Positions 36,824 to 43,438 of a stretch of 64,000 nt of DNA are shown here, piece after piece (positions within the stretch are counted from its first letter, which is position 1; the number at the start of each line of letters is the position of its first letter). The DNA is from an uncultured delta proteobacterium. GTDB taxonomy: Bacteria; Desulfobacterota; Binatia; UTPRO1. The stretch lies in assembly GCA_963846105.1 (NCBI GenBank), contig CAWJUT010000001.1, forward strand, positions 32,292 through 96,291. The letters are read 5' to 3'. The notes under the pieces are model-generated. The model was not told the origin of the DNA and searched no databases. It saw only the letters and a list, made by a program, of their open reading frames with translations. Made by a program: the position numbers and the translations under genes.

Positions 36824-38056
36824 TCAGCCTCCTTGTGCGTTGCCGGACTTCCTGGCGGACGCGGTCCGCCCTCGCGCCGCGCGCGTCGCGAAGCGCTCGA
36901 TCGCGAAGGGTGCGAGGTCATACGACGTCCGGCCGCCGAGGACCAGCTCGGCGAGCGCACGTGCGGTCGCAGGCGCGAGCAGGATGCCGTTCCGGTAGTG
37001 TCCGGTCGCGTAGTAGAGCCCGGCGATCTCCGGATCGCCGCCCAGGATCGGCAAGCCGTCGGCGCTGCCCGGCCGCAGTCCGGCCCAGGTGTCGGCAAGC
37101 GTCGCCGCGCCGAGGATCGGCGCCAGGTGGAGCGTGCGGGCGAGGATGCCACCCATCGCTTCCGCCGTCACGCGCTTGTCGAAGCCCACGTCTTCGTAGG
37201 TGCTGCCGGCGAGCAACCGTCCGTCACGCCGCGGCACGAGGTAGACCCCGCGCGAATAGATCGCGTGACGAAACGGCGGCCGCGCCATGAGAAGCATCGC
37301 CATCTGGCCGCGCACCGGTTTGACCGGGAGGTGACCTGGGCGCGGCGCCAGCTCATCCGACCATGCACCCGCGGCGTTCACGACCGCGCCTGCCGCTATC
37401 GAACCCCCCGCGGCCTCGACGCCGAGCGCGCGCCCGCGCTCGTGGAGCACGCGCCGCACAGAGATACCGGTGCGCAGCTCGACGCCGAGACGGGCTGCCG
37501 CGACCGCATACGCGCGCGTCAGGCGCACGTTGTCGACGCGGTGATCCTCGGGAAAGAGAAACCCGGCTCGCGCGTCCTCGGCGAGCCCCGGTTCGAGGCT
37601 GCGGACCTGGTGGGCATCCAGCCGCTCGACGGGAAAGCCGGCACGCCCCTGCCAATCGGCGCGGGCGCCGAGCAGCCGCTCGTCGTCGGCGTCGAGCGCG
37701 ACGTAGAGGACACCTTCGCGCTCGTACTCGGGATCGATGCCGGTCTCGTCGCACAGTCCGCGCGCGACGTCGCCGTAGAGTGCGAGGCTGGCGACGCCGA
37801 GAGTCAAGAGCGGCCCCGGCGCTTCGCACTCGGCACGCGGGCCGAGCATCCCCGCCGCCGCTGCCGAGGCCTCGCTGCCGGGCCGACCGCGCTCGAGCAG
37901 CGTGACGCGCGCGCCGCCGTGCGCGAGCTCACGCGCCAGCGCGCATCCAATGATGCCGGCGCCGACGATGGCAACGTCGGGCGAGGTCTGCGCGGAGCGT
38001 TTCCTTCGGGTGAGTGATGGTGTGGGCACCGACCGGACGGCGCGTACGCGCCGCAT
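36824..38056 (-). CDS. thiO: Glycine oxidase
   Basis: VGAGIIG, ASAAAAGMLGP, PVRGQM, YLVPR.DG, WAGLRP, GHYRNGILLAP. Confidence 0.88.
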   Translation of the reverse strand: MRRVRAVRSVPTPSLTRRKRSAQTSPDVAIVGAGIIGCALARELAHGGARVTLLERGRPGSEASAAAAGMLGPRAECEAPGPLLTLGVASLALYGDVARGLCDETGIDPEYEREGVLYVALDADDERLLGARADWQGRAGFPVERLDAHQVRSLEPGLAEDARAGFLFPEDHRVDNVRLTRAYAVAAARLGVELRTGISVRRVLHERGRALGVEAAGGSIAAGAVVNAAGAWSDELAPRPGHLPVKPVRGQMAMLLMARPPFRHAIYSRGVYLVPRRDGRLLAGSTYEDVGFDKRVTAEAMGGILARTLHLAPILGAATLADTWAGLRPGSADGLPILGGDPEIAGLYYATGHYRNGILLAPATARALAELVLGGRTSYDLAPFAIERFATRAARGRTASARKSGNAQGG

Positions 38057-38130
38057 GTCTCTCTTACGCGACGTGCTCCCGGCGCTCAAGCGCGCGCGCG
38101 ACGACACCGGGTCGACGGTTGCGTCTCCGT

Positions 38131-39156
38131 ATGGCACAAAGAAGCGTGGATGTGCGCACGGCCAGCGCGGGCAGCTATCCCCGCATCGGTGAAGAGCCCG
38201 GGGCGCAGCGCTTGCGGCGTGCCTACGCGCAACTCGAGAGCGGCGCGATCGCCGAGAGCCATTTCCGCGCCGTCGAGGACGACGTCGCGACGCAGGTGTT
38301 GGCGGAACAGGCCGAGGCGGGCATCGACGTGGTCACCGACGGTCTGGTGCGCTGGTATGATCCGATCTCGCACACCGCCCGCCGTCTCGCCGGCGTCACC
38401 ATCAACGGACTGCTGCGGTACTTCGACAACAACTGCTACTTCCGCCAGCCGGTGGTGCGCGATCACATCGCCAAGACCAGCGCGATCGTCTGCGCCGAGT
38501 ACCGCTTCGCGGCGCGCCATTCGACCCGCCCCGTCAAAGCGGTGCTGACGGGACCCTACACCCTCGCGCGGCTCTCGCTGGTCGAGACCTCGGTGTATCG
38601 CGACCTCGAGGCCCTGACGCTCGCCTACACCGACGTGCTGGCCGCCGAGGTTGCCGATCTGGCGAAGGAGCGCGCGCCGCACATCCAGATCGACGAGCCG
38701 GCCATCCTGCGCGCACCCGAGCACCTCCCGTTGCTCGCCCGCGCCCTGCGTGTGATGGCGGCGGTGCGCGGCGCCAGCGAGCTCACGCTCGCGACGTACT
38801 TCGGCGATGCCACGTCGCTGTTCGACGGCTTGCAGGAGCTGCCCGTCGACGTGCTCGCCCTCGACCTCACCGCCAGCCCTCATCTCGTTCGGCGTCTCAC
38901 GCAAACCGGCGCCCGGCGCCGCCTCGCGCTCGGGGTGCTCGACGGCCGGAGCACGCGACTCGAGGACGTCGACACGCTCGCGCCCCTCATCGCGCGCATT
39001 CTCGCCGCCGCGCGTGACGGTCCCACCTACCTCACCACCTCGTGCGGACTGGAGTTCCTGCCGCGCGCGCATGCGCGCCGCAAGCTCGTGCGTCTCGCCG
39101 AGCTGTGCCGCGCCGTTGCCGGAACGGTCGCCGTGAAGACGGGGCGCGTGGCGTGA
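38131..39156 (+). CDS. Cobalamin-independent methionine synthase, N-terminal (folate-binding) half of a split MetE
   Basis: GSYPRIG, DG.VRWYD, RYFDNN.YFRQP, LTGPYTL, QIDEP, SCGLEFLP; lacks the HxC Zn motif. Confidence 0.82.
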   Translation: MAQRSVDVRTASAGSYPRIGEEPGAQRLRRAYAQLESGAIAESHFRAVEDDVATQVLAEQAEAGIDVVTDGLVRWYDPISHTARRLAGVTINGLLRYFDNNCYFRQPVVRDHIAKTSAIVCAEYRFAARHSTRPVKAVLTGPYTLARLSLVETSVYRDLEALTLAYTDVLAAEVADLAKERAPHIQIDEPAILRAPEHLPLLARALRVMAAVRGASELTLATYFGDATSLFDGLQELPVDVLALDLTASPHLVRRLTQTGARRRLALGVLDGRSTRLEDVDTLAPLIARILAAARDGPTYLTTSCGLEFLPRAHARRKLVRLAELCRAVAGTVAVKTGRVA

Positions 39157-40190
39157 GTCGCACGGCGCTCGAGCGGCTCGGCATCCCTCTGCCGCCGCTT
39201 CCGACCACGACGTGCGGAAGCCTCCCCAAACCCGAAGCGCTGGTCGAGGCACGCGCGCGCCACGGACGCGGGCAGCTCGACCGGACGGCGCTCGACGACG
39301 AGGCGCGACGCGCCATCGAGTTCTGGATTCGCACCCAGGAGCGCATCGGCCTCGACGTGCTGGTCGACGGAGAGATGTACCGAGGTGACATGGTCACCTA
39401 CTTCGCCGAGTCGATGGAGGGATTCGCGCCCGGCGGCTTGGTGCGCTCCTACGGCAACCGCTACTACCGCAAGCCGATCATCACCGGCGCGGTGCGCTGG
39501 CCGGGCCCGATCACGGTACCGTGGTGGGAGTTTGCCCAGTCGCTCACCGACCGGCCCGTCAAAGGGATGGTGACCGGCCCCTACACGATGATGGATTGGT
39601 CCTTCAGCGAGCACTACCTCGATCGGCGCAACGCGTGCCTCGCGCTCGCGCAGGAGATGCGTCACGAGGTCGAAGCGCTGGTTGCGGCTGGAGCGCGCAT
39701 CATCCAGATCGACGAGCCCGCACTCTCCGTCCGTCCCGACGAGCTCACGTTCGCGATCGAAGCGTTGGCGATCGTGACGCGCGATCTCCCCGCGTACTTC
39801 ATCACCCACACGTGCTATGGGGCTTTCGAGGCGATCTACCCCGGCATCCTCGGCTTGCCCGTCGAGAATCTCGACCTTGCGATCTCGCATTCCAGCCTCG
39901 ATCTGCTCGCGCTGTTCGCCCGCGACCCCTCCACCAAAGACATGTCGGTCGGTGTCATCGACGTGCACACGCACGAGATCGAGCCGCCGGCCGAGGTCTC
40001 GGCACGGATCCGCCGCGCCACCCGTCTGTTCGCACCCGCCACCATCTGGGTGAGCCCGGACTGCGGTCTCAAGACCCGGACGGTGGAGGAGGCGGAGGCG
40101 AAGCTGACGGAGATGATGGAGGCAACGCGCGGCGTGCGTGGGGAGCTCGCGAACGCCGAGTCCGCGTCCGCACCCCAGGGATACCGTTGA
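39153..40190 (+). CDS. Cobalamin-independent methionine synthase, catalytic (Zn) half of a split MetE
   Basis: GSLPKP, DGEMYR.DMVTYF, RSYGNRYYRKP, KGMVTGPYT, QIDEP, HTCYG, PDCGLKTR; GTGA overlap with the N-half. Confidence 0.88.
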   Translation: MSRTALERLGIPLPPLPTTTCGSLPKPEALVEARARHGRGQLDRTALDDEARRAIEFWIRTQERIGLDVLVDGEMYRGDMVTYFAESMEGFAPGGLVRSYGNRYYRKPIITGAVRWPGPITVPWWEFAQSLTDRPVKGMVTGPYTMMDWSFSEHYLDRRNACLALAQEMRHEVEALVAAGARIIQIDEPALSVRPDELTFAIEALAIVTRDLPAYFITHTCYGAFEAIYPGILGLPVENLDLAISHSSLDLLALFARDPSTKDMSVGVIDVHTHEIEPPAEVSARIRRATRLFAPATIWVSPDCGLKTRTVEEAEAKLTEMMEATRGVRGELANAESASAPQGYR

Positions 40191-40879
40191 GCGGTCCGCG
40201 CATCCTGGTGCTTCAGCACCATCCGCTCGAGCACCCTGGTGTGATCAGCGACGCGCTCAGCCAGGCAGGCGGACGCCTCGACGTCGCCAAGCTGTTCGAG
40301 GGAGCCCCTTGTCCACGCACGATGGCGGGGTACGACGGGCTCCTCGTCATGGGGGGCCCGATGGGCGCCAACGATCACCTGACGCATCCCGATCTCGTGC
40401 CCTGGCTTGCCGGCGAGCGCGCCCTCATCGAACGGGCGATCACCGCCGACCTGCCGACCCTCGGCATTTGTCTGGGCTCGCAGCTGATCGCGGCGGTCGC
40501 CGGCGCCGAGGTCTCGCGCGGCCCGGTCCCGGAAATCGGCTGGCATCGGATTGCCCCGACCCAGGCGGCCGTCAGTGACGCGCTGTTCACCGATACCGCT
40601 CCCTTCGCTGCGCTGGAATGGCACAACGATGTCTTCCCACTGCCATCAGGAGCGGTCGCGCTGGCGTCGAGCGCCAACTACCCGGTCCAGGGGTTTCGGC
40701 TCGGACGGCGAGTCTACGGCTTGCTGTTCCACCTCGAGATCGATCCGCGCATGGTGGAAGGTTGGCGTGAAGCGTTCGCCGCCGGCGGCCCGCTTCCGCC
40801 CGGAGACATCGCTCCAGACTTCGCGGGCGCCAACCAGCGCGCCGTCAGACTGTCGCGCCGGATCTTCCTCGGCTCGTAG
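40187..40879 (+). CDS. Type-1 glutamine amidotransferase domain protein
   Basis: VMGGPMG, LGICLGSQL, EIGW, WHND, LFHLE. Confidence 0.9.
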   Translation: MSGPRILVLQHHPLEHPGVISDALSQAGGRLDVAKLFEGAPCPRTMAGYDGLLVMGGPMGANDHLTHPDLVPWLAGERALIERAITADLPTLGICLGSQLIAAVAGAEVSRGPVPEIGWHRIAPTQAAVSDALFTDTAPFAALEWHNDVFPLPSGAVALASSANYPVQGFRLGRRVYGLLFHLEIDPRMVEGWREAFAAGGPLPPGDIAPDFAGANQRAVRLSRRIFLGS

Positions 40880-41120
40880 CAACGTCCCGATGCCGCTCGC
40901 GATCTGGCGCAGCCGTGTCAGCACCGAGGAGCAGCGACAGCTCGAGAGCCACCCGCTCCTGCGGCTCGCCCAGGCACGTGACCTTGTGGGTCTGCAGCTC
41001 GGCCACGAGCGCCGCGGGAAGCCGCGGCGCGGCGTGCCGCCAGCCCCACCGGTAGGCGATGCACGCCAGCGGCAGGGTCGCGAGCGCCACCACGACCGCG
41101 ACGATGGCGTCGCCCGTCAC
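40845..41120 (-). CDS. Small single-TM protein B (91 aa), paralog of 41117-41404
   Basis: GTG start overlapping the upstream TGA; VTGDAIVAVVVALATLPLACIAYRWGW...HKVTCLGEPQERVALEL. Confidence 0.6.
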   Translation of the reverse strand: MTGDAIVAVVVALATLPLACIAYRWGWRHAAPRLPAALVAELQTHKVTCLGEPQERVALELSLLLGADTAAPDRERHRDVATSRGRSGATV

Positions 41121-41404
41121 GGCGTTGCACGCACCGCACCGGAACGAAGCCGGCGACGGTCGAGCGGCGTGCGCATGGTCAGAATCTCCTGCCAGGCCCA
41201 TGCCGGAATGTGGAGCCAGGCCTCGATTTCCTCCTGCACCCGACCGCGCTCGTGGCCGAGACAGCGCACGCGGTGGTCGACGAGCTGAAAGATCGGACGC
41301 CATGGAACCGTCGTTCTTTTGCCGGTGCGCCGGCCGGCTGCGTACGCAGCCAGCACGACGACCGGTGGAACGAGGGCGACGATGCAACTGGTGGCGGAGA
41401 GCAT
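41117..41404 (-). CDS. Small single-TM protein A (95 aa)
   Basis: MLSATSCIVALVPPVVVLAAYAAGRR...HRVRCLGHERGRVQEEI; shares a motif with protein B. Confidence 0.55.
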   Translation of the reverse strand: MLSATSCIVALVPPVVVLAAYAAGRRTGKRTTVPWRPIFQLVDHRVRCLGHERGRVQEEIEAWLHIPAWAWQEILTMRTPLDRRRLRSGAVRATP

Positions 41405-42074
41405 GCAGCTGAGACGACCACGGACGCCGATTCTTTCGCGGCCCGCCGCCTCCCCCGCGCTCGCCGCGCCGCCGGTTCCGGCCGGAGAAGCCGCGGACCC
41501 GCTGCTCGTGGCGTGTCGCGCCGGGGATCCCGCGGCCGCGGAACGGCTCTTCGCCACCTACGCCCCCACCGTCCGTGCCGCGATCGGGCGCTATCTTGCC
41601 ACCCGTACGCGCGCGCGCATCGACCTGACCGAGGATCTGACTCACGAGGTCTTCGTCGCGCTGTGGCGCGACGATGGACGCCGGCTCAAGAGCTTTCAAG
41701 GACGTGACGGCTGCTCCTTTGCGGGATGGCTACGGGTGGTCGCCGTGCGCGTCGCGATCGACACACTCCGGCGCGACCGTCGCACAACCTCGCTCGACGA
41801 CGACACGCCGGCGATGACCGAGCTGCGACGCTGCCTCGCGAGCGGCGCCCCCGATCCAGAGAGCGTTGCACGCGGCGCCGAGACAGCCGAACGTCTGACG
41901 CGCGCCGTCGCTGCGCTCGGCCCGAAGGACCGTCTGCTGGTCGAGCTGCACCTGCTGCGCGGCACTCCGCTGCCTGTGGTCGCCGACATGCTCGGGGTCA
42001 CCGCCAACGCGGCCTACGTCCGCAAGAGCCGCGTACTCGAACGACTGCGACGGAGCCTCGAGGAGTCCGTATGA
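41403..42074 (+). CDS. ECF sigma-70 factor (start uncertain)
   Basis: DPLLVACRAGD.AA.ERLF, EDLTHEVF..LW, FAGWL..VAVRVAID, region 4 VADMLGVT.NAAYVRKSRVL.RLR. Confidence 0.9.
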   Translation: MQLRRPRTPILSRPAASPALAAPPVPAGEAADPLLVACRAGDPAAAERLFATYAPTVRAAIGRYLATRTRARIDLTEDLTHEVFVALWRDDGRRLKSFQGRDGCSFAGWLRVVAVRVAIDTLRRDRRTTSLDDDTPAMTELRRCLASGAPDPESVARGAETAERLTRAVAALGPKDRLLVELHLLRGTPLPVVADMLGVTANAAYVRKSRVLERLRRSLEESV

Positions 42075-43438
42075 GTCACGACACCCAGCGCGCCGCGCTC
42101 TGCCCGGACGACGACCTGCTCGCAGGCTACATCGAGCGCCGCCTCGACGAGGGGCGCCACGAAGCCGTCGAGCGCCACGTCGCCGCGTGCCCGCTCTGCG
42201 CCGACGTCGTCGCGGCGAGCCTCACGGCCGCGGAGGAGGCGCGCGCGGTCGACTCTTCAGCGCGCCCGGTTGCCGCCGCGCCGCGCCAGCGATCACGGCT
42301 TCGCCCGCGCCGGCTGGCGCTCGCTGCCGGTCTCGTCCTCGCCTCGACGTCGGTGCTCGGCTATGCCGGCAGCCACCTGCTCCTCGCCGCCCTCGGGCGC
42401 GCGATCGCCACCAGGGCCAGCATCGCCGCGGGAGCGCCGGTGACGATCGCCAGCGTCGGGCTCGGCGTGACGTGGGGCCCATCGCTCAGGCTGCGCCTGG
42501 ACGACGTGCGGATCGCCAGCCGCGCCCCGATGGCGGCGGCGCGCATCGAGATGACGACCGCGCTCGCGGCGTTGGTGCGCGGCGACCTCGCGATCGAGAC
42601 CGTGCAGCTCGTTCGACCGCTGCTGCAGGTGGGCGATCCCGCGCCCATGGCGGCGGGTGCCGCTCCCCGCCGCGCCACTTCGATCTCGGCGGGAGCGGCG
42701 CGATCCTGGCACTGCTCGCCCGCGGCACGCTCGAGGTCCACGACGGCACGTTCGTGGTGACGGCAAGCGACGCCGCCCCCCTCACCGTGATGCACGTCAA
42801 CGGCAGGACGCAAGCGCGCCGAGAAAGCGTTGCGATCGCCTTCACGGGCACGCTCGCTGGTGGCCGCGTCACCGCGACCGGAACGATCGCGCCCGAGACG
42901 AGCGGCGGCCTCGCCGTGACCGATTGCCGGCGCCGACGTCGCGCTCGCCGCGTTGCCCTATGTCCCCACTCGCGTGAGTGGTGTCACGACCTTGCGTTTG
43001 GCCGTCGGCGGAAGCACTACCGCGCCGACACTGCGTGGCAATATCCAGATCTCCAGGGCTCGGGTAGAGGGTTGGAACCCACTTCCCGCATTGCTCGATC
43101 CTCCGTCTGTACCGGGTCTGCTCGCCATCGTTCTTCCCCCGCTGGCGGCACCGAATCTCGGGCTGCACGACGTACGGGTTCGCTTCGCGGCGCACCGTGG
43201 CGCCCTGCGCGTCCAACGAGCTTCGTTTGCGAGCGCCCAGGTCCGCGGCTCCGGCTCACTTCGCCTCCACCGCGATGGTGCGCTCCATGGCGGCGGGCAT
43301 CTCTCCCTCCCGCCCGCGCTCACGCAGGCGCTGCTGACGCACACGCCCACGCTCGGTGTTCCCGGCGCCGACGGCAGGCTGGTACTGCCCTTTCGGGTCG
43401 CGGGCTCGGTTGCGACACCTCGCTTCGCGCTCGAGTGA
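42071..43438 (+). CDS. ZAS anti-sigma domain + TM + AsmA-like periplasmic region (frameshifts ~42700, ~42930)
   Basis: CPDDDLLAGY, HVAACPLC (HxxxCxxC), TM LALAAGLVLA; AsmA-type N-part LRLDDVRI...LVRGDLAIETVQLVRP and C-end LPFRVAGSVATP; ATGA-coupled to the sigma. Confidence 0.75.

Follow-up and report, generated by a model that had tools for sequence, protein, structure and literature searches.

Two small overlapping genes on the minus strand of a 64,000-nucleotide stretch of DNA from an uncultured delta proteobacterium of the class Binatia (contig CAWJUT010000001.1 of assembly GCA_963846105.1, positions 32,292 to 96,291; hereafter the window) encode a pair of paralogous proteins, here called A and B, each with a predicted membrane helix and an invariant His/Cys motif. 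The two genes are divergent from an extracytoplasmic function (ECF) sigma factor and its coupled anti-sigma factor, with which, as judged by comparison of related genomes, they form a conserved four-gene module. Promoter-like elements of the ECF type were found for both divergent halves of the module, each embedded in the coding sequence of the opposite gene. The best overall explanation, to which we would give about an even chance, is that the sigma factor induces an A/B heterodimer, which would hold a shared site and feed back on the sigma pathway. Two unannotated open reading frames (ORFs) have in this way become a defined and testable module with an orphan protein family.

Results

Position and coding status of genes A and B

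Gene A (41117-41404, minus strand) starts with ATG and encodes 95 aa, its product reading MLSATSCIVALVPPVVVLAAYAAGRRTGKRTTVPWRPIFQLVDHRVRCLGHERGRVQEEIEAWLHIPAWAWQEILTMRTPLDRRRLRSGAVRATP, and gene B (40845-41120, minus strand) starts with GTG and encodes 91 aa, its product reading VTGDAIVAVVVALATLPLACIAYRWGWRHAAPRLPAALVAELQTHKVTCLGEPQERVALELSLLLGADTAAPDRERHRDVATSRGRSGATV. They overlap in a GTGA junction, where the TGA stop codon of A shares three bases with the GTG start codon of B. The first-pass annotation of this DNA had already described two GTGA-coupled minus-strand ORFs of these lengths inside longer ones, and both of them are present where it placed them, together with the peptide that it had quoted from each. 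The enclosing ORFs, mechanically called, span 41117..41557 (146 aa) around A and 40845..41699 (284 aa) around B; long spurious ORFs are abundant here because the G+C content of the window is 70%. The same annotation had called the two genes hidden, which is correct as far as the longer ORFs of the window are concerned and incorrect for metagenome gene callers, which already predict both proteins (as "hypothetical proteins" of 95 and 91 aa, with identities of 89% to A and 78% to B).

Relatives were collected with a six-frame search of 40 related genomes, including 18 other genomes of the same family. A orthologues were found in 17 of these 18 (E 1e-20 to 1e-26, 49-58% identity), and in the same 17 genomes a B orthologue lies directly downstream, forming a tandem pair. 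For the comparison of loci we used 15 independent related loci, the promoter alignment comprising 16 family loci and a set of 17 being these 16 and the locus of genome G019, from a sister family. Across the 15 loci, the start codon of A stands 31-36 codons ahead of a P-W-R-P sequence (ATG in 14 of them) and that of B 41-44 codons ahead of the motif His (ATG in 12), with an ATGA or GTGA junction between the two genes in 13; the remainder are one 3-nt gap and one single fused frame. By this comparison, the stop-start overlap is conserved and A-B is a translationally coupled operon.

Base composition and divergence both have the marks of protein-coding sequence. The G+C fractions at the three codon positions (0.71/0.56/0.75 in A and 0.78/0.57/0.84 in B) are coding-like and resemble those of the neighbouring sigma gene (0.77/0.58/0.79). 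The third codon position of A differs most between relatives (0.53 vs 0.37 and 0.30 for the other two), the antisense (plus-strand) frames are interrupted by stops in nearly every relative, and the ratio of nonsynonymous to synonymous substitution rates (dN/dS), a check that the first-pass annotation had proposed, is ~0.35-0.5 for the closest pairs over their full length. A plus-strand reading frame, which had been named in advance as the observation that would undo the two genes, fails to explain the conservation, because of the antisense stops and the greater variability of the third codon positions. It is virtually certain that A and B are real genes.

The fused frame mentioned above (L038:4965-5573 in genome G006; same protein as P0016) holds A and B in one open frame of 203 aa with two membrane helices and is apparently a natural A-B fusion, which, if real, would support an association of A with B. 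G006 is a long-read metagenome-assembled genome, and an indel error is a possible source of this frame.

An orphan family of paralogous proteins

Aligned with hhalign, a profile built from 25 A sequences and another built from 19 B sequences matched over 67 columns with a probability of 97.7% and an E-value of 1.9e-12, which identifies A and B as paralogues and bears out the initial claim that their common motif reflects duplicated genes and not chance. In the 35 aligned A and B sequences, Pro, Leu, His and Cys of the motif are invariant and an Arg-Val pair is nearly so. The family signature can be written as [TR]-[LVI]-P-x6-L-x2-H-[KR]-x2-C-L-G-[EHQ]-x-P-x-R-V-x-L-E-L.

The first reading of the sequence had recognised no family, and database searches lead to the same result. 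Pfam and NCBIfam scans of A, of B and of the 35 aligned members gave nothing above noise, a search of PDB sequences with the A profile gave at best a spurious match to myosin (E 0.037), and Foldseek comparison of both AlphaFold2 models with the PDB yielded no relative (best E 3.4 and 3.9). A full hidden Markov model scan of 1.84 billion representative proteins matched only 75 clusters, a few of which are repeats or artefacts. Within the class, the family was found in 34 of 201 genomes, as a tandem pair in the source family and in the sister family (G019), as a single copy in family f7 and as two unlinked copies in genome G033. On these searches, the A/B proteins are an undescribed family restricted to uncultured Binatia.

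Two candidate homologies were tried and rejected. Homology to the N-terminal domain of zinc-binding anti-sigma factors (zf-HC2/ZAS) gave an hhalign probability of 0.4% against 15 neighbouring ZAS N-domains. Mimicry of sigma-70 region 4 (PhyR-like) gave 0.1% against the sigma alignment, and the Foldseek match to SigR region 4 had an E-value of 8.8 and a TM-score of 0.28-0.36.

A conserved module with an ECF sigma factor and its anti-sigma factor

The ECF sigma factor gene (41403..42074, plus strand) matches TIGR02937 (2.6e-23) and Sigma70_r2, and its putative ATG overlaps the ATG of A in the palindrome CATG (41402-41405). It is ATGA-coupled to the anti-sigma factor gene (42071..43438, plus strand), the product of which has a zf-HC2 domain (H-x3-C-x2-C), one membrane helix and an AsmA/DUF748/YhdP-like domain; the Pfam matches to DUF748, YhdP and TamB-like sequences are sub-threshold and consistent in three proteins from two families. 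The A/B pair is divergent from an orthologue of this sigma factor and its coupled anti-sigma factor in all 15 related loci. Moreover, the family genomes with a sigma orthologue (E < 1e-69) are exactly the 17 with A/B; G011 and G015 have neither the sigma orthologue nor A/B. In family f7, the single-copy homologue is likewise divergent from a sigma factor (39-43% identical) and a similar anti-sigma factor. The linkage to the ECF pair, which the first-pass annotation had put forward for checking, is upheld by this adjacency and by the joint presence and absence across genomes. Judged on these comparisons, A, B, sigma and anti-sigma are a conserved four-gene module.

The CATG in which the start codons of A and sigma overlap is conserved in 14 of the 16 loci, and the sigma frame is open up to CATG in 16/16, despite a range of sigma lengths of 221-245 aa. 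The sigma factor is therefore predicted to carry a translated N-terminal extension of 30-50 aa, the coding sequence of which contains the promoter of A (see below).

Some further observations concern the module. In the assembly, the anti-sigma gene at 42071-43438 is broken by two compensating frameshifts (frame 1 to ~42640, frame 3 at ~42680-42925 and frame 1 again from ~42935, the original frame carrying stops); most relatives have intact anti-sigma proteins of 443-505 aa, and the frameshifts may be an assembly error or a real lesion. Three loci have family homologues and no sigma match in the locus examined (L048 of genome G024, L046 and L047 of G033), and the homologue of L048 lies beside TetR-like and LOG-like genes. 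In a relative from genome G040, an A-type box (GAAAGAT-N14-CGTCC) is present, with a weak sigma match adjoining.

Promoter-like elements embedded in coding sequence

Beyond what had been seen in the first reading, gene A has what reads as an ECF-type leaderless promoter and, in its codons 31-40, a plus-strand promoter-like element. The first of these, P_A (41413..41437, minus strand), consists of a -35 box GAAAGA (41437-41432), a 15-nt spacer and a -10 box CGTC (41416-41413), which ends 8 nt before the ATG of A, and it reads as the two-block geometry of an ECF promoter. The pattern G[TA]AAGA-N15-CGTC-N8-start codon was found upstream of A, at this fixed offset, in 16/16 loci. In its strict form the motif occurs only once in the 4.96-Mb genome and, with the ATG constraint added, only once in each of three relatives' genomes; loose forms elsewhere in the genome are chance-level matches only. 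P_A lies inside the sigma reading frame, where it fixes the rare codons AGA (1.2% of Arg) and TTA (0.1% of Leu), and since such rare codons are frozen the constraint acts on the DNA. Based on these features, A and B are very probably controlled by the adjacent ECF sigma factor. Precedents are on record both for ECF promoters that precede divergent genes and for leaderless ECF transcripts which begin with A after a pyrimidine (see Todor et al. 2020, PMC7776599, for the general properties of ECF promoters).

If the CGTC box occupies -12 to -9, transcription is expected to begin at the A of the ATG (41404), and C at -1 and A at +1 are found in 14 of the 16 loci. We consider that the A-B mRNA is probably leaderless, starting at 41404. 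The distance from CGTC to the start codon is 10-15 nt in families f2 and f7, and a leader of a few nucleotides is therefore expected there. No Rfam family was found in a scan of 40000-42500, nor any sigma-70 promoter or terminator consensus in a scan of 40600-41700.

The second element, P_sigma (41287..41312, plus strand; GAAAGA-N16-CGTC(T)), lies within gene A and came to light because synonymous sites of A are frozen: Phe39 is TTT in 17/17 loci (a codon with a genome usage of 10%) and Thr32 is ACG in 17/17 (46%). Codons 31-40 of A, which are part of its strongest conservation, are in this way also the carriers of a promoter-like element on the opposite strand. GAAAGA-N16-CGTC was found in 17/17 loci (16/16 family loci and G019), with the sigma ATG following 86-101 nt downstream (92 nt in the window), and we read this element as an autoregulatory promoter of the sigma operon. 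The invariant P-W-R-P, which lies between the two boxes of P_sigma, varies synonymously, and the protein constraint on it is therefore real. Since P_A and P_sigma face each other, the predicted transcripts converge and would overlap by ~83 nt.

Family f7 (L045, L051-L060) shows another arrangement, in which a quasi-palindromic intergenic element of ~45 bp stands beside the single-copy homologue. It is formed by two interleaved back-to-back ECF-type boxes (one with N15 that points to the small gene and one with N16 that points to sigma; 10/10 loci). A sigma-70-like TTGCCC-N17-TACAA(G/C) is also conserved there, ~12 nt before the sigma ATG.

Motif, fold and topology

The motif of A comprises residues 44-52, HRVRCLGHE (H-x3-C-x2-H; 41249..41275, minus strand), and that of B residues 45-52, HKVTCLGE (H-x3-C-x2-E; 40965..40988, minus strand); in the AlphaFold2 models, both occupy the end of the second helix and the turn that follows. 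When the motif was traced across genomes, another of the checks suggested at the outset, the His and Cys of H-x3-C proved to be in frame and invariant in 85/85 family motifs. The residue at C+3 is Glu in 56 of these, His in 14 and Gln in 8 (92% together) and never Cys, and the surrounding Pro at -10, Leu at -3, Arg-Val at +11/+12 and Glu-Leu at +15/+16 are near-invariant. Among the 19 B sequences, H45, K46, C49 and E52 are all invariant.

The model of A (pLDDT, the predicted local distance difference test, of 74) has a long N-terminal helix at residues 2-30, followed by helices at 35-48, 53-64 and 68-91, and that of B (pLDDT 76) has helices at 2-30, 36-50 and 54-65 and a disordered tail; the helix at 2-30 in both models agrees with the earlier description of small membrane proteins with an N-terminal transmembrane segment. 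In both models the second helix carries His and Cys on its last turn, and the Glu/His residue belongs to the turn that follows the helix. Lys and Arg are scarce before the hydrophobic helix (a mean of 0.39) and frequent in the 15 residues after it (3.86; 57 family members), for which reason A and B are predicted to be single-pass inner-membrane proteins of N-out/C-in orientation, with a very short N-terminus outside. In this orientation the helical hairpin with its His and Cys would face the cytoplasm. The ligand residues are as invariant as an intersubunit metal site would need, which also fits their position at the hairpin turn; that A and B share such a site is a tentative proposal, which we hold with rather less than even confidence.

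Discussion

Proposed mechanism

Release of the sigma factor would allow RNA polymerase to start at P_A, the -10 box of which lies 8 nt before the ATG of A, and to produce a leaderless A-B mRNA, from which B would be translated by stop-start coupling. The same release would yield more sigma and anti-sigma factor through P_sigma. A and B would then insert in the N-out/C-in orientation and pair as a heterodimer, with the two hairpins packed side by side and the turns bringing together two His, two Cys and the Glu/His residues, so that the turn motifs could provide a metal (probably zinc) or thiol site common to both chains. Such a dimer would work through contact with other proteins at the inner face of the membrane, most plausibly as feedback on the anti-sigma/sigma pair with which it is co-inherited. 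An action by binding, and most simply feedback on the anti-sigma factor, is proposed because A and B are too small for enzymes and are inherited only with the sigma pair. Taken by itself, feedback on the sigma pathway is a somewhat doubtful step. Unlikely, in our view, is the most elaborate version of this mechanism, in which A/B would be a new class of membrane-tethered regulators, a sigma-induced heterodimer built around a shared His2Cys2(Glu) metal or thiol centre, feeding back on a lipid-sensing ECF sigma factor and its AsmA-like anti-sigma factor; its expression would depend on the two sigma-dependent promoters, one within the coding sequence of the other, and the regulator-to-sigma ratio would be set by convergent transcription and ~83 nt of complementary 5' ends.

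Several findings weigh against this mechanism or parts of it. Part of the conservation of A (T-x-P-W-R-P-I-F-Q) is explained by the embedded promoter and not by protein function. The homologue in G024 has no sigma match in the 10-kb locus examined, and G033 has homologues without a strong sigma orthologue. The set of one His, one Cys and one Glu/His in each chain might suit a redox switch just as well, and the Foldseek comparison of the A and B models was empty, so no known fold backs a specific activity. Profile comparison reveals no relation of A/B either to the zinc anti-sigma domain or to region 4 of sigma factors.

Alternative explanations

A and B might be under the same sigma factor and act as a stand-alone effector that tunes another membrane enzyme or transporter, with no feedback. 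The AsmA-like sensor domain suggests a role such as envelope lipid homeostasis, since DUF748/YhdP/TamB-like sequence is found in the anti-sigma factors of both families; A/B is moreover the only conserved gene with such a promoter besides the sigma operon, and G024 has retained its homologue without a sigma match in the locus examined. The module, however, is adjoined by no conserved third partner (the amidotransferase described below is kept in only ~10/15 loci), and joint gain and loss are seen only with the sigma/anti-sigma pair, which together make this a rather unlikely reading. The invariant Cys and His may also be a redox-sensing thiol (through an A-B disulfide or oxidative/electrophile modification) instead of structural metal ligands. 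[quoted passage not shown]

It is very unlikely that A and B are accessory anti-sigma or anti-anti-sigma factors of known classes, whether with a zinc anti-sigma domain or as mimics of sigma region 4. The spacing of H-x3-C-x2-[E/H/Q] does equal that of H-x3-C-x2-C in the neighbouring protein, 'ELG..L.IP' resembles a helix-turn-helix by eye and SigR region 4 stands at rank 12 of the Foldseek results, but the N-terminal position of the membrane helix is opposite to that in known anti-sigma factors, and none of the 35 members has a Pfam match. Hardly credible at all is the notion that the ORFs are untranslated and owe their conservation to the promoters, to the sigma 5' leader or to a plus-strand frame. 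Two promoter-like elements do overlap the region, and the sigma leader would be antisense to the first ~28 codons of A; yet synonymous sites vary in P-W-R-P and throughout B, the same protein motif occurs, without these DNA elements, in B and in the single-copy relatives, plus-strand stops occur in relatives, and the start and stop positions are conserved together with the coupling.

Comparison with known systems

Modules of an ECF sigma factor and a zf-HC2 (ZAS) anti-sigma factor are well known, as in SigR-RsrA and RpoE-ChrR. The present module shares with them a sigma gene ATGA-coupled to an H-x3-C-x2-C anti-sigma gene, a divergent target gene and a two-block promoter (CGTC as the -10 box, spacer of 15-16 nt), as well as a likely autoregulatory sigma promoter. 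It differs in that the target is an orphan pair of tiny membrane proteins and the anti-sigma factor has an AsmA/YhdP-like domain, in that each promoter lies within the other's coding sequence (the two being face to face here and interleaved back to back in f7), and in that A and sigma have start codons which overlap in CATG, with a leaderless A-B mRNA as the prediction. An ECF sigma factor with a divergent target is, then, already known, the A/B protein family is undescribed, and the combination of two promoters embedded in coding sequence with overlapping start codons is unusual. A literature search found no paper linking Binatota and sigma factors.

With zf-HC2 itself (PF13490), A and B have in common the H-x3-C-x2-X spacing at a helix end and turn, and a membrane-tethered cytoplasmic helical domain, as predicted, beside an ECF sigma gene. 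The third ligand in A/B is, however, Glu, His or Gln and never Cys, the domain comes after the membrane helix (residues 2-30) and not before it, and no zf-HC2 match was found in any of the 35 A/B members at E<=10. A and B are not members of zf-HC2, because the third ligand and the domain order differ and there is neither profile similarity nor a Pfam match.

Small membrane proteins that are induced by the system which they modulate are known from MgrB (with PhoQ/PhoP) and from YhdK (with SigM-YhdL in Bacillus). These provide a working model for A/B, which would resemble them in having fewer than 100 aa, one membrane helix, no enzymatic domain and control by a neighbouring pathway. There is no sequence relation, and A/B differ in their predicted structured cytoplasmic hairpin, their invariant His and Cys and their organisation as a paralogous coupled pair. 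Metal sensors of the CsoR/RcnR type place His-x3-Cys on one helix and take a further ligand from the partner chain of a helical-bundle dimer. A/B share with these the i, i+4 His/Cys pair in a small all-helical protein whose metal site would depend on a second chain, but they have no Pfam match, are predicted to be membrane-anchored and show no sign of DNA binding, and the analogy is one of geometry only.

If read in this way, the family has both a predicted regulator (the adjacent ECF sigma factor) and a predicted signal input through the AsmA-like anti-sigma factor. For ECF biology, the minimal regulon would comprise the sigma operon and one tiny operon, and could be rebuilt in a laboratory host. 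The module is also an example of compact regulation, in which promoters within coding sequence freeze codons used at 0.1-10% genome-wide, and for the uncultured Binatia it adds to the few regulatory circuits that can be read from sequence alone.

Neighbouring genes

A convergent gene of class-I glutamine amidotransferase type (40193-40879, plus strand) meets B tail to tail, the two 3' ends sharing 35 nt (40845-40879). Apart from the ~10 loci counted above, this neighbour is kept in G019, and it is missing from genus g5. Upstream of it, at 38014-40190 (plus strand), lie two tandem MetE-like paralogues (cobalamin-independent methionine synthase family) with a mutual identity of ~29%, and such a tandem is found upstream of the amidotransferase gene in two relatives as well (L038 and L042).

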